DNA of 49,644 bases from a virus. Lineage: Duplodnaviria; Caudoviricetes. The position numbers and the translations under genes are program-made. Shown here piece by piece: positions 2,888 through 33,454 of the stretch. The stretch is from IMG/VR virus record IMGVR_UViG_3300017985_000026, positions 1 to 49,644 of that record. One strand, written 5' to 3'. The first letter of the stretch is position 1; every line of letters starts with the position of its first letter. The notes beneath the pieces are model-generated. The model was not told where the DNA came from. It saw only the letters and a program-made list of their open reading frames with translations, and did no database searches.

Positions 2888-3392
2888 CGCTTATAGACTC
2901 AAAAATCTTCTTACTGAAGAAGAAACCCAAGAGTTTTTAAACATGGCATATGAAACAGTCTGGAAAGATTATCATCTGGACGAAAATGGCCAAGTGTGGT
3001 TGCGTGATGGAGAAGAAAGCACCAATTACTTAGGTGTGCAAGTACAAGTAAATAGAACAATTATCAAGGTTGCTGGAAAATATGGAGTTAATAGAATATC
3101 AGGCTCAACCTTGATAAAATCTCGTCCAAATACACAAATAGATTGGCACACAGATCCTGACACAAGACAATCAATGTTTACAATTCCTCTTACTCCAGGC
3201 GTAAGAGAGTTTCATACAGAAGAAGGTGTTTTTAACTACGATTTTCCTGTTGTATGTAATACTCGTGTAGAGCATAAGGGAGTATATAAAGGTGAGAGTG
3301 GAGAAGATTCTTATGTATGGCAATTTTCTACAAGTGAAGAGTGGGACAGTTTAATACAAAGACTAAGAAGAAGGGATTTGATCGTTGACTAA
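2880..3392 (+). CDS. 2OG-Fe(II)/cupin-like oxygenase
   Basis: WHTD (HxD) plus distal H in NTRVEHKG. Confidence 0.55.
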   Translation: MSNAYRLKNLLTEEETQEFLNMAYETVWKDYHLDENGQVWLRDGEESTNYLGVQVQVNRTIIKVAGKYGVNRISGSTLIKSRPNTQIDWHTDPDTRQSMFTIPLTPGVREFHTEEGVFNYDFPVVCNTRVEHKGVYKGESGEDSYVWQFSTSEEWDSLIQRLRRRDLIVD

Positions 3393-3906
3393 TCTTTTTT
3401 TCTTATTCCAATGTCGCGATGGCTTATACATAGTAGACAGTAACCATGTACAAGATGTTCCAAAACCGCGTGAGTTAATCCGAAGAGTTTCAACTGTAGA
3501 ACAGTGTCGAGAAATAGCAGAACAAATTGGTTTACCTATCGTATCCGATACTGCTAGAAAGAGAACTAGAAAGCACACTGAAGAAGGCAGACAAAGAATT
3601 AGAGAAGCTAAACTAGGTGACAAACATCCTCACAAAGATGGTTTAAAAGATGAACACAAAGAAAGAATATCCAAGACTATGCAAGGTACTAGAGGCGGTG
3701 AGAATAATCCAATGTATGGCAGACGCCATAGAGTAAGCACTAGAGAAAAGATGCATGAGGCTTGGGTAAAGAGAGAAAGACGTTATTGGGTATGTGATCC
3801 AAATGGCAAAGCAACAACAATACCGAAGTCCCAACCGCTACCAGAGGGCTGGCAACGTGGTAGGTTCTTTGATCCCTACAAACCAGATACAGACGAGTTA
3901 TTATGA
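3385..3906 (+). CDS. NUMOD3-repeat DNA-binding protein with no obvious nuclease domain
   Basis: HTEEGRQRIREAKLG, EHKERISKTMQG and GENNPMYGRRHRVSTREKM motifs. Confidence 0.7.
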   Translation: MTNLFFLFQCRDGLYIVDSNHVQDVPKPRELIRRVSTVEQCREIAEQIGLPIVSDTARKRTRKHTEEGRQRIREAKLGDKHPHKDGLKDEHKERISKTMQGTRGGENNPMYGRRHRVSTREKMHEAWVKRERRYWVCDPNGKATTIPKSQPLPEGWQRGRFFDPYKPDTDELL

Positions 3907-3907
3907 A

Positions 3908-4333
3908 ATGCTTAAACAACTTTTATCATTAGATGATCCCGCAGCAGAACACATTGCTAAAGATCCTGTTAGAGGACATATACCAGCAATAGACAGAATT
4001 TCCAATAACAAGGAAGTTTATTATTGGGAAAAAGACGGAGAAGTAGCTGCTATGGTGTGTGTAGCACACTGTAGTCATGTTCCAGAAGATGAAGATGAGA
4101 TTAATAATGAGGGTACAGACTTTCCTATACTCTATACCATTTGGTCTTATTCTCATTTTGCTGGGAGAAGATTAGCACTCTCCGTTGTCGATCACTTTAG
4201 GCAATTAGGCATTGCCAAAGGTGTTTATACACTTAGCCCTAAAACAGACACTGCCAGAAGATTTCATATGGCAAACAGGGCTACATTATTTCGTGAGAAC
4301 GAAAACACATATAATTTTTATTACAAACTATGA
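3908..4333 (+). CDS. GNAT-like hypothetical protein
   Basis: ATG at 3908 right after the upstream stop; YTIWSY...AGRRL...TLSPKT..ARRFH pattern. Confidence 0.5.
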   Translation: MLKQLLSLDDPAAEHIAKDPVRGHIPAIDRISNNKEVYYWEKDGEVAAMVCVAHCSHVPEDEDEINNEGTDFPILYTIWSYSHFAGRRLALSVVDHFRQLGIAKGVYTLSPKTDTARRFHMANRATLFRENENTYNFYYKL

Positions 4334-4764
4334 AAATATTAATTTGCGGCTTACCAGGTTCTGGTAAATCTACGTTAGCAAAAGAATTGGCGTATCATTT
4401 CCTTTTGCCCCACCATAATGCTGACACCATCAGAGAACTATACGACGATTGGGATTTCTCTGAAGCAGGTAGATGGCGTCAGGCACTTCGTATGAAAGAA
4501 TATTATGGTATACTTGACTTTGTTTGTCCAACCGCTTATACTAGAGAGCTAGTACAAGCAGACTATATTATTTGGATGGATACTATCAAGGAAGGCAGGT
4601 TTGAAGATACTAATAAAATCTTCGAGCCTTTAGATAATTACAACATAAGGATAACAAAATGGATTGGACAAAACCAACTACGCAACTCCTTGGAAGGTTT
4701 CAACCCTGGCATAAAGGGCATACAGAACTTTTTAAGCGAGCAATTGACAAAACTGGCCAAGTAG
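4330..4764 (+). CDS. cysC: Adenylyl-sulfate (APS) kinase-like P-loop kinase
   Basis: GLPGSGKST P-loop, NADTIRE, DWDFSEAGR, DFVCPT, FEP motifs typical of CysC. Confidence 0.75.
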   Translation: MKILICGLPGSGKSTLAKELAYHFLLPHHNADTIRELYDDWDFSEAGRWRQALRMKEYYGILDFVCPTAYTRELVQADYIIWMDTIKEGRFEDTNKIFEPLDNYNIRITKWIGQNQLRNSLEGFNPGIKGIQNFLSEQLTKLAK

Positions 4765-5045
4765 CTATTTTACTCAGAGCTTCTGATGGGACAGATGAAA
4801 ACCCATACGACTTTGATCAACGTTCTACACAGATTGTAATCGCTCTAGCTAAAGAGGGATTTTATTCTGGCGAAGACTACACCATCATTAATGTACCTAA
4901 CATTGAACATATTACATATGGTAGAGATGTAGGTTACACCATTGAGCAAGAGAAGTTAGAAGACAATATCGAAGCAATTTCTGCTACTAATATCCGTAAA
5001 GGACTGCAACAAATTGCAGCCACTCACCCTAAGGTAGATGGATAG
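4659..5045 (+). CDS. Small HIGH-superfamily nucleotidyltransferase (possible minimal ATP sulfurylase)
   Basis: GRFQPWHKGH, YGRDVGY and ISATNIRK motifs; TAAGGA SD. Confidence 0.7.
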   Translation: MDWTKPTTQLLGRFQPWHKGHTELFKRAIDKTGQVAILLRASDGTDENPYDFDQRSTQIVIALAKEGFYSGEDYTIINVPNIEHITYGRDVGYTIEQEKLEDNIEAISATNIRKGLQQIAATHPKVDG

Positions 5046-5226
5046 CGTTAGTAAGACTATAGCAAAAACTCTTAGCTGGAGAATAGTCGCCACAGTCACT
5101 ACAATGATAACAGCTTGGATCATTGTAGGTGACTGGCGAGTAGGATTAGCGATAGGAACCGCAGAGTTCTTTATTAAGATGATTGTGTATTACATACACG
5201 AAAGATTGTGGACTAGGGGCGAATAA
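5038..5226 (+). CDS. DUF2061-like small membrane protein
   Basis: KTLSWRIVAT...YYIHERLW signature. Confidence 0.75.
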   Translation: MDSVSKTIAKTLSWRIVATVTTMITAWIIVGDWRVGLAIGTAEFFIKMIVYYIHERLWTRGE

Positions 5227-5830
5227 CTGTAAAGCCCTGCTTACTGACAACTTCAACTTCAGCATTAGGATACACTTCCTTAATAGCCTTTTGAGTACCT
5301 GGCCAATTAGGTGTGTTATCGTGTACACACATAATGCCTCCTTTGACGAGTCTGCGTTGCCAATATTCTAGAGCGTCTTTACATGCTTGGTAATTGTGAT
5401 CAGCGTCATAGAAGACACAATCTACCATAACATTCCATTCAAACTTTGGTGTAAAGAGCTTCTTTTGAACAGTGATATTATCAAAGCGCTCAGTGTTCTT
5501 TTTAAAGTTACTGTATTGCTCTTCACCGGTGCATTTAAACTGCTTCATGTGTTCCATTCTTTCGTCACTACCCATGTACTCAACGTTGAGTCCTGCTGCT
5601 TTTGCCTTGTTTAGTTCATCTTGGGTGGGACGTCGAGGGTTCAGTCCCTCAAACTTATCAATTGCATGGATTTTAAAGTCTTTATTATTAGCTTCAAATG
5701 CTTCAGCCCAGGCAACTGTACTCTTGCCTTGGAAACATCCAATCTCTACAAGAATACCTTTTTCTGGAAGTAGAGCTGAAACGACTGCATTAACTGCGAG
5801 GACATCGTCCTCGTAGAACATACCGATCAT
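5213..5830 (-). CDS. Class I SAM-dependent methyltransferase (Methyltransf_24-like)
   Basis: VEIGCFQGKST, AIDKF, FYDADHNY, GGIMCVHD. Confidence 0.85.
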   Translation of the reverse strand: MIGMFYEDDVLAVNAVVSALLPEKGILVEIGCFQGKSTVAWAEAFEANNKDFKIHAIDKFEGLNPRRPTQDELNKAKAAGLNVEYMGSDERMEHMKQFKCTGEEQYSNFKKNTERFDNITVQKKLFTPKFEWNVMVDCVFYDADHNYQACKDALEYWQRRLVKGGIMCVHDNTPNWPGTQKAIKEVYPNAEVEVVSKQGFTVIRP

Positions 5831-5835
5831 GTATT

Positions 5836-6342
5836 TTATACCTTTTTAGCTGCTGCCTTAGTCTTTCGACTTCTTTTTGCTTTTGGTTTTTCGGGTTTGT
5901 TGTACTCTGTGATACCTAGAAGTGGTAACATGCCTTCAAGTTTAGGGTACATGTCTAACAGTTTACCATCTTTAACTGCTGTTAGAACTTTTGCCTCTAA
6001 ATGATGCAGTCCTTCTAAAATTTGTACCCAATTAGATTCTTGTTTCCAAGTAGGTAGCTTTTTCATATTAGAACCAGGTTCCATGAACTGTCTAACACGT
6101 CTCCATTCTAATGTAAGAGTCGTCTCTCCCATACCGTCAGGAATATCTTCTTGAAGTTTAGTAGTAGAAGGCATACCTTCTGGCAAGCCCCAATCAGGTT
6201 TTTCAGCACCAACACCAATACGAACGATTGGTACTAGTGTTTGGTTAGTAGGGGCCCATTGTTTTAGTCTTGCGACTTGCTCTTCTGGGGTGTCGACTTT
6301 AAATACCCATTCAAAGCCTTCGTTGATTTGTCTGAATTTCAT
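5836..6342 (-). CDS. Conserved T4-like hypothetical protein downstream of RNase H
   Basis: ILEGLHHLEAKVL motif; late promoter at 6452-6459. Confidence 0.6.
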   Translation of the reverse strand: MKFRQINEGFEWVFKVDTPEEQVARLKQWAPTNQTLVPIVRIGVGAEKPDWGLPEGMPSTTKLQEDIPDGMGETTLTLEWRRVRQFMEPGSNMKKLPTWKQESNWVQILEGLHHLEAKVLTAVKDGKLLDMYPKLEGMLPLLGITEYNKPEKPKAKRSRKTKAAAKKV

Positions 6343-6353
6343 AGTGTCTCCAT

Positions 6354-7253
6354 TTAAAAATCTTCTATCACTTCCATCATTAGTTTCATTCTGTTCTTGA
6401 TGAAGTAGTTTAACAACTGGCTTCTATCGCCACCTTGTTGTCTTTCATAACTATTTATAATACTTTCTTTAATATCTTCTGGTGTCTTAGACAAGTCTAC
6501 TAGAAGTTGATTACGGTTAAACCCATGAGCCATCTCAGAGTTCACTACAAACTCCTCTGGCTTCATGCCTTTCCACTCTGCCAACAATGCCTTTCTAATA
6601 GGTCGTTGTCGTTTACCCTCAACAAATGTATCGTCTGCAGACAGCATATTAGGAATGCCGTCACCTTTATCGCCTGTAATAATATGTTCCATGAGAACTT
6701 TATCGGCAGGCTCTTTAATCTTAACCCACTTCTTAAATGCAGGAGCAAACTGTTTTACATTACTCCACTTCTGTAGCTGATTAAAGTCATGATCACCTGA
6801 GATAATAAGAAAAGGTTCAGGTGTGGGATCGTCAAACAATCCACCTACACTGTCCCCAGATGTTTGACTGTACTCTGCCAATGTACCAATAACATCATCG
6901 GCTTCAGCACCGTCTACATCAATTACAGGATAAGGAAAAAACTCCTCTAACTCTTGTCTAATGATGTGCAATGCATCAAATATAGTACTCCAATCAAGAG
7001 CGCTTTCTTCTCGCACTTTTTTGCGGTGAGATTTGTAGAAAGGGAACACTTTTCTGCGCCAATAGTGCCTGTTATCCATAGCAATTACTAGTTCACCATA
7101 TTCAGCACCAAACCTATTACGATAGGAACGTAATGTATTTAGAATCATATGCCTAAGTAGATTAACGTCTACATCTACACTGGCATCCTTACGGTGTCCA
7201 ATCTCTGCCATAAAGTTGGCAATGGCGACTTGATTAAAGTCTACAACAATCAT
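6354..7253 (-). CDS. rnh: T4-type RNase H (5'-3' exonuclease)
   Basis: MIVVDFNQ, YWRRKVFPFYK, EADDVIG, SGDHDFNQL, GDKGDGIPN. Confidence 0.95.
   Translation of the reverse strand: MIVVDFNQVAIANFMAEIGHRKDASVDVDVNLLRHMILNTLRSYRNRFGAEYGELVIAMDNRHYWRRKVFPFYKSHRKKVREESALDWSTIFDALHIIRQELEEFFPYPVIDVDGAEADDVIGTLAEYSQTSGDSVGGLFDDPTPEPFLIISGDHDFNQLQKWSNVKQFAPAFKKWVKIKEPADKVLMEHIITGDKGDGIPNMLSADDTFVEGKRQRPIRKALLAEWKGMKPEEFVVNSEMAHGFNRNQLLVDLSKTPEDIKESIINSYERQQGGDRSQLLNYFIKNRMKLMMEVIEDF
6452..6459 (-). promoter_or_regulatory. T4-type late promoter TATAAATA inside the 3' end of rnh
   Basis: Exact match about 110 nt upstream of the gene at 5836-6342. Confidence 0.5.
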
Positions 7254-8392
7254 TCTTTAATCCTCAAAATTACAGAGTTAGGTTGTACCCTAGTCTTAAC
7301 TGCCATCTTTTTACCACGGATATTATCCATGAACTTGTGCAAGCCATTGGCTCGTGCCTTCATAAATGCTGGCACCATCTCTTCAGGCTTTCTAATCGTC
7401 TTTTCGTAAGACTTAGAATCTGAATAGTTTTCAATAGCAGTGCCTTTAACACTGAGTCCGCCATCATACTCTGAGGCGTATACACAGAGTCGCTTACGTT
7501 TAACATCATACATCCAAACCTCAGTAGCACCAATAATTGCTACAGGGTTTACAGAGGCAATACCCAAGTCTTTATCCTCAGCTAGGTAGCGTAGTCGACG
7601 TACAAGTTTGTTCTTGTCTGTAGGACGCTTCTTCCTAATACGAGTAATTTTCTTGGCTGTCTTCTCATTCATTAGAAAGCCTTCACAAGCATCATAGAAC
7701 TCGATAATCTTTCTAACTGTAGTTACCTTTAGATTAGAAAAGCCTTCAAGTAGCTGCTTGTCCCAATCGCTAGGATCTTTTAACTGACGAACTTGCTGGA
7801 GTTCCACCATCTCGTCTTTGTATTTGCCTAACTCTGCAAACATTTTATTAATCTCAGCATTGTTTAGTTTAAAATCTCGCAATGCTGTGACACTCCGTAC
7901 ATTTTTACCGTCTACAATCTCATCAATACCCAACTCAACAAAGCACATTGCTTCATTTAAGTTCTCACGCATTGCCACAACCTTCTTAGGTTTAGGTGCG
8001 GGTGCGTCTTCAGTATCTTCTTCCCAACTAGACTTAGGGTTTGTTTTTGCTTTTTCTAGAAACTGTTGTAGTTTCTTATCAATATAGTTTCTAGCAGACT
8101 CTGTCATCCACCCTGTCTTAGAATGGACAAAACAATACTTGCCTACATGGTTAAAGTTCCAATCTGACAAAGTTAGAATAGCAGATATCTCTTCCTTAGT
8201 CAAACCAGAGTCTTTACGAAGCCAGGTTTTAAATGCTGCTCGTAGAATTTTGTCTGCGATTTCGTACCGGACAAAGTAATCAATATCTTTCCACTCTTGT
8301 TCTCGTTGAGTGTTGTCTTCAATTAATGCTAGCTTTACCCAATGAGGTTCAGTCATCACATAGGTGCTGCGTTTACGTTTAGTTTGTGCCAT
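7250..8392 (-). CDS. Conserved hypothetical protein
   Basis: 380-aa ORF with AAGGAG SD and its own sigma70 promoter; coupled to rnh. Confidence 0.75.
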   Translation of the reverse strand: MAQTKRKRSTYVMTEPHWVKLALIEDNTQREQEWKDIDYFVRYEIADKILRAAFKTWLRKDSGLTKEEISAILTLSDWNFNHVGKYCFVHSKTGWMTESARNYIDKKLQQFLEKAKTNPKSSWEEDTEDAPAPKPKKVVAMRENLNEAMCFVELGIDEIVDGKNVRSVTALRDFKLNNAEINKMFAELGKYKDEMVELQQVRQLKDPSDWDKQLLEGFSNLKVTTVRKIIEFYDACEGFLMNEKTAKKITRIRKKRPTDKNKLVRRLRYLAEDKDLGIASVNPVAIIGATEVWMYDVKRKRLCVYASEYDGGLSVKGTAIENYSDSKSYEKTIRKPEEMVPAFMKARANGLHKFMDNIRGKKMAVKTRVQPNSVILRIKE

Positions 8393-8418
8393 AGAAGGAC
8401 TCCTTTATTAATCTACTA

Positions 8419-8447
8419 ATTATAACATCGGTAGATCAGGATGTCAA
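8419..8447 (-). promoter_or_regulatory. Sigma70 promoter TTGACA-N17-TATAAT
   Basis: gcTTGACAtcctgatctaccgatgtTATAAT; an atctac/gtagat inverted repeat (8411-8436) spans the -10. Confidence 0.9.
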
Positions 8448-9065
8448 GCATTTTTTTGGCAGGTACTTGTACTTCTCAATCTCTTCGCCATAGTGTTTCT
8501 GTATAACATCAATATAATCTTGAGTGTAGTAAGTTGATTTTCTGTATCGATAAGGCAGAACATTAGCTGGTTTTAATGGATCTGGGACAGCTAGAACCTC
8601 TTTAATTATTTTAAATTGATTGTGTAAGTTTTCATATTGGAGAACAACATTTACACCTTTTAACCATTCTATTAATGAGCGATTCCAGTGAGTATATCTT
8701 GAGGATTTGTTGTCGTTAATCCAATCAGTGAAATACACGATGCCTTTTTTATGAGCCTTTGTGTATAGTTTCCATTCTTTGGTTTTTTCTCGTCGTGTTA
8801 CTGGTTGTAATCCAATATGGTTATACACACTTATCATTCTATCATATGTATTTCTTCGCACACCAAATATAACATACGGGTCTATATCTGTGTATTGTGA
8901 CAACGGCACTTTATCACCTGTTCCATTTATTTCTTCAAGTGTAGCATGTCCACAATGATCAAGAACAAAGCTATGTTTTTGACTGTTTCTATTCGCCCAT
9001 TGAATAATCGCCGTGCCAGCAGTTTTAGGGACATGTACAAATACTGCCCGGCGCAGAGGACGCAC
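8436..9065 (-). CDS. Sulfotransferase family 2-like protein
   Basis: FVHVPKTAGT (5'-PSB) and VRRNTYDRMISVY (3'-PB) motifs. Confidence 0.85.
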   Translation of the reverse strand: MRPLRRAVFVHVPKTAGTAIIQWANRNSQKHSFVLDHCGHATLEEINGTGDKVPLSQYTDIDPYVIFGVRRNTYDRMISVYNHIGLQPVTRREKTKEWKLYTKAHKKGIVYFTDWINDNKSSRYTHWNRSLIEWLKGVNVVLQYENLHNQFKIIKEVLAVPDPLKPANVLPYRYRKSTYYTQDYIDVIQKHYGEEIEKYKYLPKKCLTS

Positions 9066-9350: not shown

Positions 9351-10280
9351 TTACTCCTTTTGTTTACGTTTACTATCAATTAACCATTTTAATCTTTTAC
9401 GATCTTCTTCATTACCTTTAGACGCTTGTCCGTATTTTTTTGTAATCCAATTATCTACGTCTTTATCATCTTCAGGTATATCTGTAATGTCTATATTATA
9501 CTCTTCTAACTCTTTTGTCAAGTCTTTTTCACTAATAAAAGTAATTGATTCGCCTTTACGTTTCTTAATAGACATGTTAGCAGCAACTACTAGAAGAATA
9601 GCTAATGGATCAAATACAAAAATAAGTAGCATAATGATAATTCTAACTGCACTATCTACACTAGATTTGTCTGATGTAGAATAAAATAGTTCTGCGATAT
9701 ATTTGATAGGACCTAGCTCTGCGTCCATTTGTGCTACTTCTTGCCTCATTGGCAAGAGCTCTAAGTTTAGTGCATCGATATTAGCTACTGCCTCATCCAT
9801 CTCTGCATTCAACTGTTCTCTTTCTTCTCTCTGTGTTCTGTTCACATAGTTTTTATCTTCACCACGTGATGTTCTGAGAGTATCGTCTAAACCAGATAAA
9901 CGATCTCGGGCTTGTTGTAATTTACTTCTTTCTGCGTCTAGTCTAAACTCAATGACTTCCATGTTTAGTGTATAGTCTTGATTAGTAGCAGTTTGATCAA
10001 TATGTGCTCTTGATAGAAAACCAAAGATACCTAAAGATGTAATGACAGAAAGAATAACAACTGCCGATACAAAATATGTCTTTAATAGTTTTGATGAGGT
10101 TGACCAATATTGATACACCCAAGATGCTGTTACAAGTTTAGCAATCTCAAGAACTACTCCCATACCAATAATCTCGGCATAAGCTGCCGGGAATATAGTG
10201 GTTAATCCAATGATTGAAAAATATGCTGCTACAGAAGATACTGCAAGAGCAGAAAATAAAAGTAAAATTATAAATCCCAT
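9351..10280 (-). CDS. Multi-pass membrane protein with a long coiled coil
   Basis: Three N-terminal TM segments, heptad-rich middle, C-terminal TM IFVFDPLAILL. Confidence 0.75.
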   Translation of the reverse strand: MGFIILLLFSALAVSSVAAYFSIIGLTTIFPAAYAEIIGMGVVLEIAKLVTASWVYQYWSTSSKLLKTYFVSAVVILSVITSLGIFGFLSRAHIDQTATNQDYTLNMEVIEFRLDAERSKLQQARDRLSGLDDTLRTSRGEDKNYVNRTQREEREQLNAEMDEAVANIDALNLELLPMRQEVAQMDAELGPIKYIAELFYSTSDKSSVDSAVRIIIMLLIFVFDPLAILLVVAANMSIKKRKGESITFISEKDLTKELEEYNIDITDIPEDDKDVDNWITKKYGQASKGNEEDRKRLKWLIDSKRKQKE

Positions 10281-10897
10281 AAAAATTCTTTCGTTACTCG
10301 TTCGCCGAAGTAATTAACTTTAGTAGAGGTGAGAACTAAATCTTTATATACTTCTGGCTGTATTACCTCTTTTTTCATTAACGCATTATATGTATCCATT
10401 TCTCTGTCTAAATTAAACTCTTTGGCAAAATTTGTTACTATACCTTTAAAAGTTCTTTTTCTGCCGTCTAATGGTTTCTCATCATTAGGAGAATTAACAT
10501 AGCTTCCAATATTATCATATGGCAATATCTGAAAATTTAATTTGAGATCAAATTTTTGTAAGTATGGATCACCGTGAGTGTGCTTAATGCGATCTCTATT
10601 TTCTACAAACTCTTCAAAAACTTTTGTGTTGCCAAAAGTATTTTTTTGGCCACAATACACCCAAAAATCTCTATGAATTCCTGAAACTAATCTATCAAAA
10701 GGATTTCTTAGTACTAAGATAACATGTTTGTAATTAACATCCTGAGCGTACTCGTTTAAACTGTAGTATCTTTGACGAGATTCTGCTTCAAAATGTGTAC
10801 AACCAAAAATCTCTCTTGTGATTACTTTAGAGGCAGATCTTAAAGGAATACTCATTACAAAATTATTTGTCTCAACAATTATGTCTTGGGCTGCCAT
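10268..10897 (-). CDS. Divergent sulfotransferase-like protein
   Basis: IPLRSASK (PSB-like) and VLRNPFDRLVSG (3'-PB). Confidence 0.6.
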   Translation of the reverse strand: MAAQDIIVETNNFVMSIPLRSASKVITREIFGCTHFEAESRQRYYSLNEYAQDVNYKHVILVLRNPFDRLVSGIHRDFWVYCGQKNTFGNTKVFEEFVENRDRIKHTHGDPYLQKFDLKLNFQILPYDNIGSYVNSPNDEKPLDGRKRTFKGIVTNFAKEFNLDREMDTYNALMKKEVIQPEVYKDLVLTSTKVNYFGERVTKEFLWDL

Positions 10898-17499: not shown

Positions 17500-18585
17500 C
17501 TAAATTGGTTGTTCTCTATAATCTTTGTGAAAGAGTGGTAGTTCTTTGGTAAAGCACCGCGGATCTATTATTTTGTTTTTGTAATCTACGCCGGAGATAG
17601 ATATATATTGATCTAAGGTTCTTGCATCTCCCAATCCATAGATATCATCTAATTGATCTCTAAAAATAAGCGTTTGTCGTTTGTGAGATTGCTCATCTAT
17701 ATCCCACCATTGAAAATCTCGGTTGTCGCATGCTTGTTGATCCCAATACAACAAACCCTCTCTATATCCTCTTCCATAATAATGTCTTGTTGGATAATCC
17801 CACATATGAAAAATGTTATAACCGTTTGTCCATGCTCTAAGGGCTAAACTAGGCTCTTCTCCATGGAAAAATAATTTTTCATCATATGGCACCTCTTCAA
17901 CAAAAGTACCTAATGTAAATACAGTGTTAGCACTAAAAGCAAACCCATGTACATAAGGCTGTCCTGTTTCCATGTTTCGGCAAATATAAAAATGCTTCCA
18001 CCAGTCTAAAATGTCTTCAAATTTATCTACAATCTGCCCTCGATAGTTTACAGTTCCATCTTCGTGAAAGGTCGTGTCAGAACTTCCTAAACACAACAAA
18101 CGCATACTATATTTTCCTGGTTTAGGCTCGTATGGCGGAAGATGAGAAACAGGCAATGGATTCCTAATTATATCATCATCTATTGCCGACATTGGATCTG
18201 GGTAACCAGTAATTAAAGGTTTTTCGTGGTACTGTTGCAAATGTGCAATTGAACTAATAAACTTTAAATCCCACTCGGTCTCCCAACCTGTATGAGAGTC
18301 TATTTGGCAATAATACTTTTCGCCATTATAAGGTTCCTGTGCTCTAGTTCTTGCCCAGCAACATCCCAAACTTTCATGAGGCTCATAATGTTGATAATGA
18401 ATTTGATCTCTAAAATTATCAAAACATGGCAAGGACAAATCTAGTTTTTCTTGTGGAAAGGATTGATCGACGATAGAAAAAACTAAATTATTTTTATAAA
18501 CAGCATTGTCCCAGCAACGAACGATAGTATACATCAATAGGGGATCCCTAAAAGATGCAATAGAGATAAAAATCTTATCCTTCAT
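17500..18585 (-). CDS. GlcNAc-transferase-like glycosyltransferase (Skp1-hydroxyproline GlcNAc-T / GT60-like)
   Basis: IFISIASFRDP, GCCWAR, QIDSH, FHGEEPSLALRAWTNGY. Confidence 0.8.
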   Translation of the reverse strand: MKDKIFISIASFRDPLLMYTIVRCWDNAVYKNNLVFSIVDQSFPQEKLDLSLPCFDNFRDQIHYQHYEPHESLGCCWARTRAQEPYNGEKYYCQIDSHTGWETEWDLKFISSIAHLQQYHEKPLITGYPDPMSAIDDDIIRNPLPVSHLPPYEPKPGKYSMRLLCLGSSDTTFHEDGTVNYRGQIVDKFEDILDWWKHFYICRNMETGQPYVHGFAFSANTVFTLGTFVEEVPYDEKLFFHGEEPSLALRAWTNGYNIFHMWDYPTRHYYGRGYREGLLYWDQQACDNRDFQWWDIDEQSHKRQTLIFRDQLDDIYGLGDARTLDQYISISGVDYKNKIIDPRCFTKELPLFHKDYREQPI

Positions 18586-25532: not shown

Positions 25533-25979
25533 TCAGTGTTCATTTATATCCTCTATACGTTGATTAAATATCGAAAACTTTAATAGTAATCTTGGTTTAT
25601 CTCCTGTTCTTACAGAGTGCATTAATGTAGTATTTAGAAATGCTGCTGTATAATGATAATCAACGCCTTCTACATTTACAGGAACCGGATCGTCCGATAA
25701 CACAAAGTTCAATGAGCACAGTGTACCGTTATCAACGTGAGGGGGAAGATAAGAGTTAGGTTCTTGCCAATAGAATTTTGGGTGGTATTCTATGCCAAAA
25801 TCATCTGCTATTTTTTTAAGTTCAGGATGTTCGTAGGTGCTAATTTTCCACCAACTAAAGTCAACGTAAGGAAATCTATTATCAGTATAAAAGGTTGCTG
25901 AAGGATATGCTTCTTCAGCAATCTCTTTCATCCTTTCTATGTCTAAATCATAATCTACATGAATCAAAGGTATAGACAT
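25533..25979 (-). CDS. 2OG-Fe(II)/cupin-like oxygenase
   Basis: LPPHVD...NTTLMHSV...R motif. Confidence 0.6.
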   Translation of the reverse strand: MSIPLIHVDYDLDIERMKEIAEEAYPSATFYTDNRFPYVDFSWWKISTYEHPELKKIADDFGIEYHPKFYWQEPNSYLPPHVDNGTLCSLNFVLSDDPVPVNVEGVDYHYTAAFLNTTLMHSVRTGDKPRLLLKFSIFNQRIEDINEH

Positions 25980-27916
25980 TATCTTTTCTTTTTAGGTAAA
26001 TTAACCTTAAATTTTTTGCTTGTTTGTTTCTTTGCTATTGGTTTAGCTGGCTTGTACGTTTTAGATTTAGATGCTTTCTTCTTGTTGCGGCCTTTCATGC
26101 GAGCAATTTCCATTTTACGCATATTGGGTAACATCTTAACAGATAAGCGTTGTACAAGAGGAGCAAAACGTGCAACTAGTTTTTCAAATCTAGCCTTTTC
26201 TGCTGGGGGCATTGTCTTCTTATCTCTACCTCTGAGTAGACGCTTATAAACCATACCTCTTGCTCCACGAACAGCTCTTCTTTTTAATCTGTCAGGTGAA
26301 GATCCTCGTCTAAGTGCAATTTGTCTTGCTACTTTTAATTTTTGTCTGTTACGTCTAGCAGCGAAACGTCTTTTTAATCTACCTTGTGTTGATAGTTCCT
26401 CATCAAGTTCTTCGTCCCACTCTTCTGGTTCAAACTCCTCGTCGTCAAGATCTAAATCAACTGAAAAATCATCAAACTCTGAATAAAACTCTAGTTGATC
26501 ATATGTAATATTTGCTGCTTCATTTTCTAATTCTGCGACATCTTCTTGGGTGAGGAAGTAATCGGCCATTTCTTCGTTTTCTTGCTTATATTCGTGTTTA
26601 GAGTTATCTTTTTGTACGTCTATTTTTACTTCCTCATTTTCTTTTATCTCAATCGGAGTATCAATAGGTTTAATCATTTCTGTTTTTTTAGCTTTTTGTT
26701 CACCAGGTGTTAACTTCTTAAAATATTCTGTTCCCTGGTCTGTACCCCACTCCATACCACCAGGTGTAGGATCGTACTCAGCATCTTCTTTAAGTTTGTC
26801 TAAAATCTTTTGTCTAATATTAGGCTTTAAGTCTTTAAAATGAAATAAGTTTACGCTTTTCTCAGTGTGCTTCTCACCTGTCATTACTTGACCGTCGTGT
26901 GCGTGTTGTGGACCTTTCCACTCTTTACCGTCTTGTGTATAGTGTCCGTCTGTTTTCCAAGAATGCTCTTTGCCTTCGTTATGATGCATGTTTAACTTCC
27001 AGTGTGCTAACTTCTTTGCACCCGGGCTGGAATTAGGGTTGGATCTAATCTTTTTAAGTTCTGTTTTTGTAGCGTCTTTGGGTACACCGTGTCTGTTAAT
27101 CTCACCAAGTGACTCTTTCTTTCTTTTAGATGCGAGATATGCGGCAACTGCCATACTTCTACGTTTAGACTTGCCTTTGCCTTTAAATTGAGGTGCGTCA
27201 GACTTTTTAAAATCGCTAATGTAATCGCCGATACTGTTTTTGTCCGCGTCTAGTTTCTCTCTAATGTTTCTCTTTTTCATCTGACTATTTATCCATTCTC
27301 GAGCGTGGTGATTATTAGGGGGACGCCTTACCCACGCCCCAATTCTTCTATAGGCAGACATTACTCCGCCTTGTATATTACTACTTTCACTGTTATCTAC
27401 AATAATAAAGTTTTGTCCAAATAGATGTTGGAATTTACCAATGTTATTTTGTACATCACTCCACATTTTAGACACCATACCAGTGGGAAGTGTTCTTGTA
27501 CGAGCTTTGTTTCTTGCAAGTGCAGTATTTTTATCTGTATTAACAAATATCATTGCACAATCGTAACCTAAATGCTGAAGATGTGCCTTCATTGTTTGTA
27601 TTTTGCTATAGTCTTTACCTGTTCCGTCAATAACTAAACCAAGCCTGCCGTTAATGTAACTATCCATTAATCTTTCTGTGGCAGATTTTGCTCTGGCTCT
27701 TATAAGCTGTCCTTTTTCTGACTTTATGTTGTCTGGTGTAGGAGCCATGCCATGTTTAGCTAAGGCATACTCATACATTCTATCAGGATTAACTATTTTT
27801 AGCCCAAATGATGTTAAAGCAGTTTGTCCAACCACAAAGGATTTACCGCTTCCAGGCCCACCGGCTAGGAATACGGCTTTAAAAATACCAGGATCTCTAA
27901 TTCCTTCAGTTAGCAT
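25979..27916 (-). CDS. Zeta-toxin/AAA_33-like P-loop kinase fused to multiple small modules and an Arg-rich C-terminal domain
   Basis: AGGPGSGKS, VNPD, VIDGTG, ARNKARTR; followed by charged modules. Confidence 0.75.
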   Translation of the reverse strand: MLTEGIRDPGIFKAVFLAGGPGSGKSFVVGQTALTSFGLKIVNPDRMYEYALAKHGMAPTPDNIKSEKGQLIRARAKSATERLMDSYINGRLGLVIDGTGKDYSKIQTMKAHLQHLGYDCAMIFVNTDKNTALARNKARTRTLPTGMVSKMWSDVQNNIGKFQHLFGQNFIIVDNSESSNIQGGVMSAYRRIGAWVRRPPNNHHAREWINSQMKKRNIREKLDADKNSIGDYISDFKKSDAPQFKGKGKSKRRSMAVAAYLASKRKKESLGEINRHGVPKDATKTELKKIRSNPNSSPGAKKLAHWKLNMHHNEGKEHSWKTDGHYTQDGKEWKGPQHAHDGQVMTGEKHTEKSVNLFHFKDLKPNIRQKILDKLKEDAEYDPTPGGMEWGTDQGTEYFKKLTPGEQKAKKTEMIKPIDTPIEIKENEEVKIDVQKDNSKHEYKQENEEMADYFLTQEDVAELENEAANITYDQLEFYSEFDDFSVDLDLDDEEFEPEEWDEELDEELSTQGRLKRRFAARRNRQKLKVARQIALRRGSSPDRLKRRAVRGARGMVYKRLLRGRDKKTMPPAEKARFEKLVARFAPLVQRLSVKMLPNMRKMEIARMKGRNKKKASKSKTYKPAKPIAKKQTSKKFKVNLPKKKR

Positions 27917-28289
27917 TCTCTGTGTCTTCAGTTGGTTTTGGTTTTAATTGCTCTTCATAATATACTATAAGAGCTTTTTGTTGTTCTAAATATCTACGCA
28001 ATTCTGCTAAGTTTAATGACATATTTTCATAGCCAGGAACGCTCACCGCATAAAATACAAAGTCCCCATTTTCTTTTTCAAATCTTTCTCTAAACTCGTC
28101 AAAGTTTTCTGGAGTAACAACATACCATTCAACATCAAACAAAGATAATCCTTTAGGTCTTGCCTGTATTGGTATTTGTCGTTCTACTGTCTGAATTTGA
28201 GTTACAATTCTCTCTTTAGGTGCCATCAAAGAGCAACCTGAGACAAGAATACTACTCGTTACTAGTAGAAGTAATAGCTTCAAGTTCAT
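27906..28289 (-). CDS. Outer-membrane lipoprotein, o-spanin (Rz1-like)
   Basis: Signal peptide MNLKLLLLLVTSSILVSGC with lipobox; overlaps the upstream TM/coiled-coil gene. Confidence 0.75.
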   Translation of the reverse strand: MNLKLLLLLVTSSILVSGCSLMAPKERIVTQIQTVERQIPIQARPKGLSLFDVEWYVVTPENFDEFRERFEKENGDFVFYAVSVPGYENMSLNLAELRRYLEQQKALIVYYEEQLKPKPTEDTENAN

Positions 28290-28629
28290 CGAATATAGCT
28301 GCTGTTGCATTATTTACTCTCGTTTCTATGAGTCCAGGCTTTTGCATGGACAACATGGTTAAGTTATGTCTGCGAAGTTTTCCAATTAGTTCGTCTTGGT
28401 ATACTTCAGCTTCTGTTAATTGTGTCTGTAATTCCTCAACTCGTTGTTGAGTTTCCGCATTCTGTTCTACTAGGAGATCATATGCTTGTTTGTTAGCTTC
28501 AGCCGCTGTCTCTGCTCTTGCTAAATTAGCAGCAGCTAACTGTAATCTTTCTTGGGTATCTTTATAGTAGATGTAAGCACCGCCCAATGCACCAAGAATA
28601 AATAATAAAGGCATTAATCTAAATAACAT
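28252..28629 (-). CDS. Inner-membrane i-spanin (Rz-like)
   Basis: N-terminal TM MLFRLMPLLFILGALGGAYIYY plus coiled coil. Confidence 0.7.
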   Translation of the reverse strand: MLFRLMPLLFILGALGGAYIYYKDTQERLQLAAANLARAETAAEANKQAYDLLVEQNAETQQRVEELQTQLTEAEVYQDELIGKLRRHNLTMLSMQKPGLIETRVNNATAAIFDELEAITSTSNE

Positions 28630-28630
28630 A

Positions 28631-29227
28631 TTAACAATTCCATCTTCTTCTTGCAGCCTTACCTCTTTCTCCTGTCCAGCCTTTGGACCTTGCACAGAAT
28701 GACTTGCGTCTTTTAGCAGCTTTGCTACCAGGTTTTAGCTTGCTTGGAGGTGTAGTTACTGCGGTTTGTAGTTTACTTCCTGGGTTCTGACGTCTATATT
28801 TATCGACGCCTTTTTGTGTCAGGCCTGCGCCTGATTCTGTGGACCTTTTATGTCCACCTTTTTGTGTCATGCCTTCCATTCCTTTTTCTTCATGGAAGCC
28901 ACCTGCCATTTTGTTAAACATTTTAGCAGTTAGATCTGATTTTTTTGATGACTTATGTTTTTTAGCTTCAGATACAGATACGTTATCACCATCTACTGAA
29001 ACTTCTTTGGCATTGTTATCCCAATACTCACCACCATACGCACAATCTGAGCGTGTTTCTAGTTTCTTACACTTGGGGCAGTATTTAAGTTCTTCATCTT
29101 CTTTGACGCAATTGTTGACACGGACACCACCTTTAACTTTGGTGCCTTGTTTTTTGTAGCCGTCCCAACACTTAGGATCAAGTCTTTGTTTTTCTGCCTC
29201 TTCTAGCCACTGTTTGAAGTTTTGCAT
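28631..29227 (-). CDS. Putative internal head protein with CTS-like N-terminus and basic Cys-containing modules
   Basis: MQNFKQWLEE; CWDGYK...NNCVKE; KRRKSFCARSKG...ARRRWNC. Confidence 0.6.
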   Translation of the reverse strand: MQNFKQWLEEAEKQRLDPKCWDGYKKQGTKVKGGVRVNNCVKEDEELKYCPKCKKLETRSDCAYGGEYWDNNAKEVSVDGDNVSVSEAKKHKSSKKSDLTAKMFNKMAGGFHEEKGMEGMTQKGGHKRSTESGAGLTQKGVDKYRRQNPGSKLQTAVTTPPSKLKPGSKAAKRRKSFCARSKGWTGERGKAARRRWNC

Positions 29228-29534
29228 TTTTTAATTCCTGTATCTCTTTTCTTAATTCTTCTATTTGTTCTTGGAGTTCTGTAGCCCCTCCAGGAGCGAC
29301 TGGTGGGTGTGTCCACTCCTCCAATTTATCAATACGTTCTGCCAACAAAGGATAATCACGACGCCATTTAGCATCAGTCTTTGTTATATGTATATCGTAT
29401 TTATAAGAAACGTAATTGAGAAAACGATCTAATTTTTGTTGAAACCAAGTACCTGCCTTGGTTCTGAGGAACCACTCACCAAAAGATGAGCTGATTATAC
29501 CTGAGAGTATCGACTTTACTAAGAACCAGTACAT
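29178..29534 (-). CDS. Hypothetical protein with hydrophobic N-terminus and coiled C-terminus
   Basis: ORF coupled to neighbours. Confidence 0.6.
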   Translation of the reverse strand: MYWFLVKSILSGIISSSFGEWFLRTKAGTWFQQKLDRFLNYVSYKYDIHITKTDAKWRRDYPLLAERIDKLEEWTHPPVAPGGATELQEQIEELRKEIQELKNAKLQTVARRGRKTKT

Positions 29535-30157
29535 GAATGCTCCTTCAAGAAGGACTTGAAGCTATGGAAAACTTCTCCCTCCTTAAGTTGCATACCATGT
29601 CTCACAGCTTTAAATAATTTTTTAGCATGGGTTTGAGATGCTCTGTGATGTAGGCCACGTTTAAATGATTCAAAGTCATTATTAGCAGCGTGAGCTCTCA
29701 TTTTTGTGCCACTGATACCAGTAACACCGTCTGCATCAGGATCTCTATGTCCTGCTGAGACAACATTAATCTTTTTAAAATGATATTCTTTTCCAGGTCC
29801 GTTATACTTGTCTACAAGTCTTTGGAATTCATGTACTCTGTCAGATCCAGCAACCATTGTTACATGGGTGTATCCTTGTGAGTGCATGTTTTTTAGATGT
29901 GCTAAGAAGTGAGGACTCTCTTTACTAGAAGCCTCAAAGTTTACACCTGGGTGCACATGTTTTAGATAGTCTACTTTGTGATCGGAATGTAATGGATTCT
30001 TCTTAGAGTCCTGACTGTGGCTTACAATAACTTTATGATCTGCACCGTGTCCTCTTGCAACATCGTGTACAGCGTCAACTAACTTACTATGCCCAGCAGT
30101 AGGTGGGTTCATCCTTCCGAACGCAAATACCATATGTTTGTTTTTTCTAGCTGGCAT
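29519..30157 (-). CDS. Cytidylyltransferase-like (HIGH) nucleotidyltransferase
   Basis: FGRMNPPTAGH, KNPL, AGSDR, ISGTKMR. Confidence 0.85.
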   Translation of the reverse strand: MPARKNKHMVFAFGRMNPPTAGHSKLVDAVHDVARGHGADHKVIVSHSQDSKKNPLHSDHKVDYLKHVHPGVNFEASSKESPHFLAHLKNMHSQGYTHVTMVAGSDRVHEFQRLVDKYNGPGKEYHFKKINVVSAGHRDPDADGVTGISGTKMRAHAANNDFESFKRGLHHRASQTHAKKLFKAVRHGMQLKEGEVFHSFKSFLKEHSCTGS

Positions 30158-31335
30158 TATTTGTTCCCTTTAAGTGCGTCGCCTCTAGCAAAGTTAGCAG
30201 CACTAAACTCTTTTCTATCAACAAATTTAGAAGGACGGCCGCCTTTGTGTACAACAAAACCTTCAGGCTTCGTAGGCATTCCTCCAATCTCATGACCAAC
30301 GCTAGAATGGCTTGATAACGCGTCTGTTAAAATATCTTTTGCTTTTTGTAAGTGATGGTGCATTTTTAAAGCAGTTTCAATATGTCCTTTATCTGCTTTT
30401 ATTTTGTTTAGTGCAGCATCCCTTTTCTGTGTTCTGCTCTGTACTGCCTTTTCTAGTTTTACTTTAGCAATACCTTTGTCGTGTTTTAGTTTGTGATGAG
30501 CATGGAAGCCTTTATGAGAAGGATCCTCACCTGTTCTTACTGTATTGTTAATATATGTTTTAAGATGTTTTGAGTGTCCCATTACAGCCTCGTGCCCTTC
30601 TTTAGGCATCTTTTTGTAATGTTCCATAGCAGCTTTTACATGCTTCTGATACTCTTGTTGTGCTTCTAGAGGGTAGTGTGCCTTACTAATGTCATGATGA
30701 ACAGGCATCACGTGAACGTCTTCGTGTTCATTGTGAGTAATATCTGCACCGTGTTGTGCAACCATTTGATCGAGACTGTTACCAGTATATTTGGTATGAA
30801 TAGCAACACCAAATTTTGCCTTTAGAGCCTTCTTATAATCGTCCGAACCTTTTGGATGGTGGTATGTAATAGTGTTTGGTGTATACTCTGCACGATGTCC
30901 ACGATCCTTTACATCACCAGAGTGCATAATATCTGCCTGGTAAATGCCTTTGCCGTCGTGAATTTTGGGAAGGTGTTCTAAAGCAGCCTTGAGCTTTTGA
31001 ACAAGTCCAGGAGCATGTCCATGGTTCTTTTCAATATCAGCAGGCGTATAATTAATCTTAGGATTTTTGTTGAAAACAGACTTACTGCCTACAAAGAACT
31101 TTCCAGTTTTAGGATCTGTACCGTAAATAACTGCAGGACTACCATCATATTTTGTGGTAATTTTAGTGTCGTTTTTTTGTCCAGTTAGGTGTCCGTGTAC
31201 ATCATTTAGGGTGTGAAAAGCATGTGCAAATCCTTCTGCACCTCCATGCAAGACATGATCCTCTACATGTTCTAGATGCTTGAGTTTGTCTTCTTCAGCC
31301 GCTTGTTCTACTAGAAAACCCCTAAACTTCAACAT
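30157..31335 (-). CDS. DUF6267-like protein with ATP-dependent ligase / RNA-ligase motifs
   Basis: TTKYDGSP (I), FFVGSKS (Ia), IYQADIM (III), PEGFVV (IV), SKFVDR (V); N-terminal MLKFRGFLVE. Confidence 0.65.
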   Translation of the reverse strand: MLKFRGFLVEQAAEEDKLKHLEHVEDHVLHGGAEGFAHAFHTLNDVHGHLTGQKNDTKITTKYDGSPAVIYGTDPKTGKFFVGSKSVFNKNPKINYTPADIEKNHGHAPGLVQKLKAALEHLPKIHDGKGIYQADIMHSGDVKDRGHRAEYTPNTITYHHPKGSDDYKKALKAKFGVAIHTKYTGNSLDQMVAQHGADITHNEHEDVHVMPVHHDISKAHYPLEAQQEYQKHVKAAMEHYKKMPKEGHEAVMGHSKHLKTYINNTVRTGEDPSHKGFHAHHKLKHDKGIAKVKLEKAVQSRTQKRDAALNKIKADKGHIETALKMHHHLQKAKDILTDALSSHSSVGHEIGGMPTKPEGFVVHKGGRPSKFVDRKEFSAANFARGDALKGNK

Positions 31336-31401: not shown

Positions 31402-31409
31402 TATTTATA
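31402..31409 (-). promoter_or_regulatory. T4-type late promoter TATAAATA
   Basis: Exact match just upstream of the sigma70 -35 element. Confidence 0.7.
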
Positions 31410-32127
31410 AGATTCTGGTATACGGAAACACTAATTTATTGGGCTGCGTACCCTTAAGAATGTTGAAATCAGGGAGTTCGTCTCTGTAGATTAGTTTCAT
31501 ATTTTTGTTATCGTATACCATTCTAGACTCTTGATCAGGATCAACATACATGTCTCTGCCACCCCTTTCAATTGTTAGAGTAATTCCTGTATTATTTTTT
31601 GTCGAAGCTGCTTCTAATCTTTCATGGAATTCTCTATCGCCATAATGCCAGCCTGTAAAAGATTCATCATAACCACCAGCGTCCCAATACGTTTTCTTTG
31701 TTGTTATAAACATATTGATATGTCCTGGACAAGGGACAAAATTCTTTTTGTGTCTGATATAAGCATTGAACATATAGTGACGTCCATCCTTAAATGCAAT
31801 ACGTCTTATACTTCCCACATCACAAGGATTGAGAGTGATATCCATATCTAAAAATAGAACGGGATCTGTAGGTGCATAAGTTGCAGCTAAGTTTCGACAA
31901 CCATGGGAGTTAAAACCAAGGTCCTCGTCTACTGTCCACAACTGTATATTAGGACCATATGGAAAATATGTTCTCTTTAAAATATCCAACGCAGGATATT
32001 TCTGTGATCCATCATCAACCACAAAAATCTCAACTCCAGGAGGATAGTCTTCCCAGAGTTGGGCTTGTTTTTCTAAAAGTTCAGGTTCCTCGTAATAGGA
32101 GTAGGCTATGGTTAGCCTTGGCTCCAT
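31405..32127 (-). CDS. GT-A fold glycosyltransferase (GT2 / GT7-C-like)
   Basis: VVDDGS, RNLA, FLDMD, GGYDESFTGWHYGD. Confidence 0.85.
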   Translation of the reverse strand: MEPRLTIAYSYYEEPELLEKQAQLWEDYPPGVEIFVVDDGSQKYPALDILKRTYFPYGPNIQLWTVDEDLGFNSHGCRNLAATYAPTDPVLFLDMDITLNPCDVGSIRRIAFKDGRHYMFNAYIRHKKNFVPCPGHINMFITTKKTYWDAGGYDESFTGWHYGDREFHERLEAASTKNNTGITLTIERGGRDMYVDPDQESRMVYDNKNMKLIYRDELPDFNILKGTQPNKLVFPYTRIL

Positions 32128-32134
32128 TTTATCA

Positions 32135-32488
32135 TCATTGAGGAATTTCCCCTGCGATTCCAGCCATTTCAGATCTAACATCGATTTGTGTAACATCCTC
32201 AGCGGGGAAGTCAATTGTTCCCCCTTGTTCTAATTGAAAGTTTTCTCCGTGTGTAAGAGAATTATTGCTATATAACTCAAACCCGATATAGGATTCTATG
32301 GTGTTATCAGAGATCCTACCTTCCAAGATGTGCATAAACTTTTTAACAGCATCTCCAATTTCAGGCCAAGTAGGTTCCTTTTCAAATCTTGCAATAATGT
32401 ACTCATTACAATCACAAGCCCTCCACATAGGGAGGTGGACATCTCCAAGGTTTTGCCAAACCTTAGTGCAGGCTACCAACTTTAGCAT
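32135..32488 (-). CDS. Hypothetical protein
   Basis: Likely start MLKLVACTK with GGAG SD; weakly resembles the gene at 39491-39967 (MKLVIWTQ). Confidence 0.65.
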   Translation of the reverse strand: MLKLVACTKVWQNLGDVHLPMWRACDCNEYIIARFEKEPTWPEIGDAVKKFMHILEGRISDNTIESYIGFELYSNNSLTHGENFQLEQGGTIDFPAEDVTQIDVRSEMAGIAGEIPQ

Positions 32489-32830: not shown

Positions 32831-33454
32831 CTATTCCTCAATGTTATAACCAAGTTCATTCATAACTTGAAAATCAAGATTTTCATTAATCAATTCTAAT
32901 GTAGACGGAGGAAGATACTCCATACTTAAATTTTTATCTACATCAGAATTTGATATTCCTTGTCCACTTATATATTGGCTAACATACTTTAAATTTTGTA
33001 CGTCTGTGCCTAATAAAAGATTTACCTTTTCAGCAATCACTGAAGGAAAATTTCTAAACTCTTCCACTTTTACAATCATACTATTTGATAATTTTTTAGA
33101 GAGTTCAAGATAACTTCTATTTTTTTGATTCCACATTGCAATGCTGTTTTCATAATCTTCTATTTGAAATTTTACAAAAGATTCTAAAGGGCGATCATGT
33201 GCTTCAGGGCAATGGAAATAATAGGGTTCACGGTGCATTGCCTGTATCCATGTGTACGGAGATCTAAAAGTAAAAACAAATAATGTTTTAGTGAGATCAA
33301 ATTTTTCCATCTCTGATAATGAAGGAGCTAAACGATGCTTCCAACCCAAATATCTGTAATCATGAGGGCGTAAATTAAAATTTTCTGTGAGAAACACTCT
33401 TACAGCATTTGTTCCTGTATGTCTTTCTCCAAAAATTTTACTAGTTTGGATCAC
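32831..33454 (-). CDS. Sulfotransferase-like P-loop protein
   Basis: FGERHTGTN, GWKH, FRSPYTWIQAM. Confidence 0.65.
   Translation of the reverse strand: MIQTSKIFGERHTGTNAVRVFLTENFNLRPHDYRYLGWKHRLAPSLSEMEKFDLTKTLFVFTFRSPYTWIQAMHREPYYFHCPEAHDRPLESFVKFQIEDYENSIAMWNQKNRSYLELSKKLSNSMIVKVEEFRNFPSVIAEKVNLLLGTDVQNLKYVSQYISGQGISNSDVDKNLSMEYLPPSTLELINENLDFQVMNELGYNIEE

Follow-up and report, generated by a model that had tools for sequence, protein, structure and literature searches.

Gene layout of the phage locus

The window, by which we mean the whole 49,644-nucleotide stretch of DNA analyzed here, is a 49.6-kb fragment of a marine T4-like phage (virus record G000) with ORFs for RNase H, ribonucleotide reductase, primase, helicase, recombinase, and polymerase, most of these labels being read from translations. 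Three ORFs on the same strand, all intact, make up the locus. The first (4330..4764, + strand) encodes a shortened, CysC-like APS kinase of 144 aa, identified by Pfam, PHROG, and family-profile matches and by conservation. It overlaps a gene (4659..5045, +) for a 128-aa minimal nucleotidyltransferase of the HIGH superfamily, our candidate ATP sulfurylase, which was assigned from its match to PF01467 (E=1.9e-6), its homologues and their conservation, a structure model, and a fold search. The third gene (5038..5226, +) encodes a small DUF2061 membrane protein of 62 aa with two hydrophobic stretches by hydropathy, and it matches PF09834 over the full length of the profile (1-52 of 52, E=3.5e-20, 72.6 bits). 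A sequence-only reading had described a CysC-like kinase overlapping a small HIGH enzyme and followed by DUF2061, and the ORFs together with the Pfam and PHROG matches bear out this arrangement. Upstream, a 141-aa ORF (3908-4333, +) ends in a stop codon that overlaps the kinase start (ATGA). It has no Pfam or PHROG match, and a protein atlas places it in a viral family resembling the C-terminal part of malonyl-CoA decarboxylase (PF05292, score 0.98).

The small-enzyme ORF lies in the -1 frame relative to the kinase, with an overlap of 106 nt, and the two ORFs correspond to the two halves of a fused phage family, phrog_10255 (E=2e-23 and 3e-18). We rejected an assembly error joining them because an overlap of exactly 106 nt recurs in 14 of the 77 viral loci with a called gene and because two contigs from aquatic RNA runs, X1 (4120-4946) and X3 (4480-4773), cross the overlap without a gap or indel; these contigs are not evidence of transcription. 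A programmed frameshift is not favored either, since the small gene starts at an ATG of its own, with a Shine-Dalgarno-like AAGGA (4647..4651, +) seven bases 5' of it, although low-level frameshifting may still occur. The position of AAGGA suggests that the small enzyme initiates independently rather than as a frameshifted fusion. AGGA is found at the same place in 13 of the 17 long-overlap relatives shown, a conservation that may be codon-driven because the same bases encode kinase residues. The bases that encode the C-terminal 35 residues of the kinase (4659-4764) also encode, in the other frame, the N-terminal part of the small enzyme; this overprinting is conserved across relatives in this phage clade, and in fused relatives the same 35-residue tail is a helix.

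PAPS, which is made by ATP sulfurylase and APS kinase, is the donor for sulfotransferases. Two sulfotransferase-like genes, both on the minus strand, lie 3 and 5 kb from the module. One of them (8436..9065) belongs to the sulfotransferase family and is a candidate PAPS consumer (PF03567 E=3.4e-5, over the cut-off; phrog_3347 E=1.5e-12), and the other (10268..10897) is a weaker case, with both of its matches below the cut-off (PF00685 E=0.002; PF03567 E=0.03). Two more ORFs, 32831-33454 (-) and 40477-41151 (-), have a sulfotransferase-like N-terminal loop by eye and no Pfam match, and were not counted. Elsewhere the window holds a minus-strand block (25979-31335) with a zeta-toxin-like P-loop kinase of 645 aa, a second HIGH nucleotidyltransferase (29519-30157), and a DUF6267 gene. 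A third, cytidylyltransferase-like gene lies at 33451-33906 and glycosyltransferase genes at 17500-18585 and 31405-32214.

Resemblance of the kinase to APS kinases

Both its sequence profile and the fold of a fused relative place the kinase nearest to the APS kinases. The best solved matches of its family profile are APS kinases (2yvu, E=1e-15). The window kinase keeps the P-loop along with D32, R35, F43, R48, R54, F64, and P67, so that the residues aligning with the substrate positions of APS kinases (D/R/F/R/R/F-x-x-P) are all present, and the lid region is reduced. Searched individually, it matches the Pfam APS_kinase profile PF01583 at E=0.003, with 17.9 bits against a cut-off of 21.1 (profile 5-65 of 152), and the PRK05541 subfamily weakly (E=1.7e-4). 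Relatives pass the PF01583 cut-off (31.5 and 54.1 bits), yet they match only to profile position 91.

The fold test was run on a model of the fused bacterial relative P0300 (pLDDT 91), standing in for the window kinase. Its best match is the APS kinase 4rfv (Z 18.5, rmsd 1.8, 128 residues aligned; Foldseek E=4e-9). The top five matches are all APS kinases or enzymes with that domain (Z 16.5-18.5), and gluconate kinase scores 15.9.

The small enzyme is a bare HIGH-superfamily domain

All three motifs that had been taken as parallels to Sat, QPWHKGH, ITYGRDVG, and ISATNIR, are present in the 128-aa protein. The parallel holds only in part: the HxGH-type and S-x-T-x-x-R motifs resemble those of Sat, Sat's QxRN reads GRFQ here, and the loop that stands where Sat has GRDHA is GR-x-x-G with a variable Asp, kept in only 364 of 516 sequences. 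Near-invariant across the same 516 sequences are G12-R13-x-Q15-P16-x-H18-x-G20-H21, R40, N48-P49, and P80-N81, joined in the C-terminal half by Y87-G88-R89-x-V91-G92-Y93 and S108-A109-T110-x-x-R113. Within the GRFQP stretch, G12, R13, Q15, and P16 are invariant, and in the GRD loop G88 (516/516), R89 (514/516), and G92 (516/516) are kept.

The structure model (pLDDT 85.8) is a bare HIGH Rossmann domain. NMNAT and PPAT come out best in the fold search (2qjt, Z 10.7, rmsd 3.1, 113 aligned), with the Thermus ATP sulfurylase 1v47 in ninth place (Z 8.6, rmsd 2.9, 116 aligned). Because NMNAT, PPAT, cytidylyltransferases, and Sat all fall at Z 8-11, this search cannot tell the substrate. A profile search of solved structures ranks archaeal NMNAT/NadM first (E=9e-14), and Sat is absent among the best 60 of the 83 PDB profile matches. 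Scores against curated families are low: 17 bits for Pfam ATP-sulfurylase (PF01747, E=0.004, cut-off 24.3), 32.9 bits for NF002243 (cut-off 127), and 28.7 for TIGR01527 (cut-off 181), the latter two over residues 10-84 only. Relative to NadM, a segment between strands 3 and 4 appears to be deleted, as judged from the fold alignment and conservation. We take this segment of NadM to be its NMN-binding part, with a helix that carries the nicotinamide-stacking Trp. In the small enzyme the distance from P80-N81 to G88-R89 is a constant 8 residues in 489 sequences, which would leave no room for a Trp-carrying helix.

Descent from Sat is not supported, since QxRN is absent and a profile comparison with five Sat proteins was non-significant (probability 1.5% over 26 columns, between shallow profiles). 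Instead, the small enzyme appears to be a distinct lineage, related to NadM, that fills the role of Sat. Sequence alone would favor a relative of NMNAT, and the argument for a sulfurylase comes from gene context.

Pairing with APS kinases in viruses and cells

Homologues of the small enzyme comprise 813 proteins of the same size and 1193 longer ones, and most of the best 120 longer homologues also carry an APS_kinase domain. A bacterial query returned 526 further matches, and we estimate that about 2700 viral stretches hold the pattern. We examined 80 viral and 80 cellular loci. Among the 77 viral loci with a called gene, the kinase is fused in 3, lies within three genes in 68, and is missing in 6; the 75 called cellular loci divide into 12 fused, 49 adjacent, and 14 without a kinase. 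An APS kinase is therefore fused or within three genes in 71/77 viral and 61/75 cellular loci. The cellular count misses the canonical CysC of a Flavobacteriaceae contig (L125), which the clustering did not catch and which the small enzyme follows. In haloarchaea, the small enzyme is fused to a full-length canonical CysC (PF01583 E=5e-44). Since it pairs with canonical CysC in both of these settings, the link is to APS chemistry and not to one kinase lineage.

The fusion also occurs in isolated phages (12 records), including Salvo, Sano, and DLP6. In a quick tree, the window copy falls among viral sequences within a set of 56 rows (98% support) to which SAR86 and some SAR11 copies also belong; the tree names no donor. 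A gene consisting of only a pyruvate-kinase barrel follows the small enzyme in L125 (1716-2720) and a canonical Sat in L205 (2094-3419), and a gene of the same cluster precedes the fusion in L141 (2141 region). It is possibly a shared accessory of PAPS cassettes.

Cellular copies and sulfur metabolism genes

In five loci of one SAR11 group (L105, L109, L290, L291, and L293), a lone small enzyme precedes aprM-aprB-aprA by 32-60 nt on the same strand, in the place of sat, and L111 shows the same gene order. AprA and AprB were confirmed by family match, and the aprM label was given by position alone, without a family match. Downstream of aprMBA in these loci are a TauE sulfite exporter and a dehydratase-family gene that we take to be SuyB-like, along with Xsc in L109. 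A HIT-family gene lies near aprMBA in L105, L291, and L293; presuming that HIT-family proteins act on APS, it could give APS another outlet. The kinase and small enzyme together converge on aprMBA in five loci of another group (L147, L148, L150, L153, and L295), and in most Pelagibacter the pair sits in a C1/methyl-metabolism region, not beside aprMBA. For A. vinosum, the accessible text of PMC3779200 places sat in the position relative to aprMBA that the lone small enzyme holds here.

Another arrangement occurs in a Pelagibacteraceae MAG (G012, locus L110), where positions 3267-8404 encode, in order, a CbiX chelatase, a cysG-type tetrapyrrole methylase, a sulfite reductase, CysH, DUF2061, the kinase, and the small enzyme. 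The genome has no Sat or CysD match, and the small enzyme here takes the place of cysDN. The locus is a seemingly complete operon for assimilatory sulfate reduction in a lineage held to need reduced sulfur, and L098 shows the same downstream genes. Coming from one MAG, the operon could reflect a rare trait or mis-binning.

Lone copies are also found in three genomes without an aprA match (L149, L151, and L152), one of which has Sat. A gene of the inositol-monophosphatase/CysQ family lies beside the small enzyme in these loci, L149 and L151 among them, and L149 (6098-13639) additionally holds Xsc, a phosphate acetyltransferase, and a class III aminotransferase. In Microvirga, the fusion is situated between nodH and nodP-nodQ, and the NodQ (CysN-type) has no kinase domain and ends at its C-terminus in DUF2061. 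The small domain of this fusion, the sole copy found beside canonical NodPQ, has lost conserved residues (HxSH, and Leu for R89). In its accessible portion, bioRxiv 2022.04.26.489235 reports DUF2061 in the nodHPQ loci of Mesorhizobium.

Distribution in Pelagibacterales and other carriers

Our sample comprised 224 Pelagibacterales genomes at least 90% complete, including one unpublished genome (G091). The small enzyme is found in 181 of them, aprA in 187, Sat in 9, and CysD in 7. Counted by hand, 172 genomes have both the small enzyme and aprA, 9 the enzyme alone, 15 aprA alone, and 28 neither (Fisher, odds ratio 36); because the genomes are kin and the 2x2 counts are not phylogenetically independent, p-values overstate the case. 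One block of genomes, G053-G087, accounts for 25 of the 28 double negatives. When the 178 aprA genomes without a Sat or CysD match are considered, 164 carry the small enzyme. CysD occurs in 0/181 genomes with the small enzyme and 7/43 without it, and eight of the nine Sat-bearing genomes also keep the small enzyme. SAR11 carriers encode a separate NadD (4/5) and CoaD (5/5). Neither Sat (0/5) nor CysD (0/5) was found in five carriers outside SAR11; among the soil and marine carriers, 2/5 have no PF13469 match, and CysH is absent in 4/4.

This distribution can be set beside published accounts. In its accessible text, PMC5069961 describes Pelagibacter as having aprBA and lacking cysDNCHIJ and sat, and its Table 3, which covers seven strains, gives five orthologues each for cysC and aprA. 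AprAB is presented in the accessible parts of PMC12636525 and bioRxiv 2026.04.03.716430 as core, under strong purifying selection, and part of an incomplete pathway.

Sulfotransferases as candidate users of PAPS

A sulfotransferase lies beside the small enzyme in all four haloarchaeal plasmid loci opened (of 6 matches in all) and in 5 of the 30 cellular loci whose neighbors were scanned. The four opened plasmids (L004-L007) share a conserved cassette of sulfotransferase, CysC fusion, and YqcI/YcgG-family gene. In viruses, a sulfotransferase occurs with weak E-values within four genes of the enzyme in at least 6 of the 77 loci, in a scan that covered 119 of 182 listed neighbor representatives after common core genes had been left out. 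Co-occurrence with sulfotransferases across phages, which the earlier reading had proposed as a test, is suggestive locally; at the level of genomes, 4/27 carriers and 1/19 control fragments had a match (p=0.39, with fragments 9-86% complete, controls that include close kin of this phage, and one family run on the full set). The carrier G277, which is 84% complete, gave no match to any of four sulfotransferase families.

Among isolated phages, Salvo has a weak Sulfotransfer_4 gene (E=6e-4) three genes upstream of the fusion, and DLP6 has a clear sulfotransferase elsewhere in its genome. Salvo is a lab-grown 55-kb phage carrying the fusion (L001:6263-9251) and is tractable for finding a sulfated product. 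A hunt for phage sulfotransferases by motif regex was discarded because it missed the known one in L008.

A candidate third type of ATP sulfurylase

Two types of ATP sulfurylase are recognized, Sat and CysDN. Given the gene context and distribution, we think it probable that the 128-aa protein represents, in minimal form, a third type of ATP sulfurylase related to NadM/NMNAT. Together with the kinase, it would use host ATP and sulfate to make first APS and then PAPS, to be consumed by the products of the phage's sulfotransferase-like genes. With somewhat less assurance, we favor extending this to the whole NadM-related family of roughly 120 residues, which would then be a third ATP sulfurylase class across thousands of marine phages, SAR11, SAR86, soil alphaproteobacteria, and haloarchaea, would provide the missing Sat of SAR11, and would give phages an autonomous PAPS supply. 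The small enzyme is likely to be the sulfurylase reported missing from SAR11. The idea that phages make PAPS with this kinase and a tiny sulfurylase draws good support from cellular gene context, but its original form, a stripped-down Sat, is not supported, given the 1.5% profile probability, the closeness to NadM, and the absence of QxRN.

In the mechanism we propose, ATP would be bound by HxGH and SAT-x-R, the motifs that do so in other HIGH transferases. Sulfate may be held by the family-specific R40 and/or R13/R89 together with the backbone of the G88-R89-x-x-G92 loop, which aligns with the G295-R296-D297-H298-A299 loop of Sat. The kinase and a host pyrophosphatase would pull the unfavorable sulfurylase step, and such a pull by APS kinase and pyrophosphatase is established chemistry. 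The resulting PAPS would feed sulfation of a glycan or small molecule, and DUF2061 may serve as a membrane accessory of sulfate activation, either an anchor or a local sulfate supply. The small enzyme of SAR11 would work in the reverse direction, yielding ATP and sulfate from the APS that AprBA forms out of waste sulfite.

A different role in APS metabolism has to be weighed against this reading. APS is the metabolite common to all contexts, and the protein might handle it without being a classical sulfurylase, as an ADP-forming APS:phosphate adenylyltransferase, an enzyme that recycles APS/PAPS, or a regulator of the kinase that binds APS, with the phage using host APS. The missing sulfate loop of Sat, the inositol-monophosphatase/CysQ-family gene adjoining the lone copies in L149 and L151, and coexistence with Sat in 8/9 genomes would all suit such a role. 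However, net APS from sulfate is needed both for the L110 operon and for those sulfotransferase cassettes whose genomes have no Sat or CysD match, and HxGH and SAT-x-R, which act on the ATP/pyrophosphate side in the superfamily, are near-invariant. We consider this account unlikely.

We are more doubtful still that the pair makes another donor for sulfotransferase-fold enzymes, a 3'-phosphorylated nucleotidyl-X in which X is not sulfate. The CysC-like kinase of phosphoramidate synthesis in Campylobacter is presumably a precedent, and the window kinase is weak on APS_kinase (E=0.003) and PRK05541 (E=1.7e-4), has a shortened lid, and accompanies divergent phage sulfotransferases. Nevertheless, a non-sulfate donor leaves the positions beside aprMBA, cysH/cysI, nodH/nodPQ, and TauE unexplained, relatives of the small enzyme fuse to canonical CysC, and the substrate residues of APS kinases are kept. 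An NMN adenylyltransferase that forms an NadR-like NAD salvage unit with the kinase, as in jumbo phages, seems to us highly improbable, despite the best family and PDB matches being NMNAT/NadM and the fusions of HIGH nucleotidyltransferases with P-loop kinases in phage NAD synthesis and salvage that the accessible text of PMC7824862 describes. All NMNAT scores lie far below curated cut-offs (33 bits against 127) and cover only the N-terminal 65-85 residues, and in the fold alignment 110 residues of the model are spread across 138 of the M. jannaschii enzyme. Moreover, there is no NAD-salvage gene among 253 neighbors scanned, the kinase is an APS kinase by fold, and the hosts have their own NadD.

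The preferred reading, a third type of ATP sulfurylase, bears on how genomes are annotated. Those that have neither Sat nor CysDN are taken to be incapable of activating sulfate or of completing Apr-dependent sulfite oxidation, with Pelagibacter as the textbook case, and a small, easily expressed candidate makes this gap directly testable. If the SAR11 part is true, the ocean's most abundant bacterium recovers ATP from the sulfite of taurine and sulfonate breakdown and makes PAPS. The preferred reading would also change pathway calls for many marine genomes. With it, the apparently lone cysC of aquatic phages would be explained, and a PAPS synthase of roughly 250 aa would become available for possible use in enzymatic sulfation.

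Comparison with known enzymes

Phage APS kinases (cysC) are known, common in aquatic viruses, and transcribed according to the accessible parts of PMC10914622 and bioRxiv 2021.01.05.425418, which treat viral cysC as assimilatory sulfate reduction, without a partner sulfurylase or fused domain. We found no publication assigning sulfurylase activity to the small-enzyme family, in a search that had most subscription papers and supplements outside its reach; the accessible portions of PMC12135136, PMC8305020, and PMC2211403 hold nothing on the family.

Archaeal NMNAT/NadM (TIGR01527, NF002243; 1f9a, 1ej2, and 2qjt) is closest in sequence and fold and shares GRxQPxHxGH and the NP motif after strand 2. 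Unlike NadM, the small enzyme has a core about 30-40 residues shorter, a near-invariant R40 where aligned NMNATs have Gly-Ser, and loci without NAD-pathway neighbors.

With Sat (PF01747, TIGR00339; A. vinosum 4dnx and Thermus 1v47), the small enzyme has in common the HIGH Rossmann core and HxxH, both general to the superfamily, a GR-x-x-G loop at the place of Sat's GRDHA, and the S-x-T-x-x-R motif. Its partners, APS kinase and aprMBA, are also the same, and among the Sat-CysC and PAPSS fusions (2gks and 1x6v) its fused relatives compare with human PAPSS1 in having the kinase first. Sat is a three-domain chain of about 350-400 aa, whereas the small enzyme is a single domain of about 120 aa (128 here) without the N- and C-terminal domains, has GRFQP for QxRNP, and shows no GxxKxxD loop. 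The accessible text of PMC3779200 gives QxRN, the sulfate-binding loop, as the defining motif of Sat and has the Ala299 NH of the G295-R296-D297-H298-A299 loop bind sulfate. Most likely, the small enzyme works like Sat without belonging to the Sat family.

Compared with CysD/CysN (NodP/NodQ), the small enzyme would carry out the same reaction from the same operon slot (cysI-cysH-cysC), although it is of a different fold class and has no GTPase partner. DUF2061 is linked to both, and CysD and the small enzyme are mutually exclusive in the 224 Pelagibacterales.
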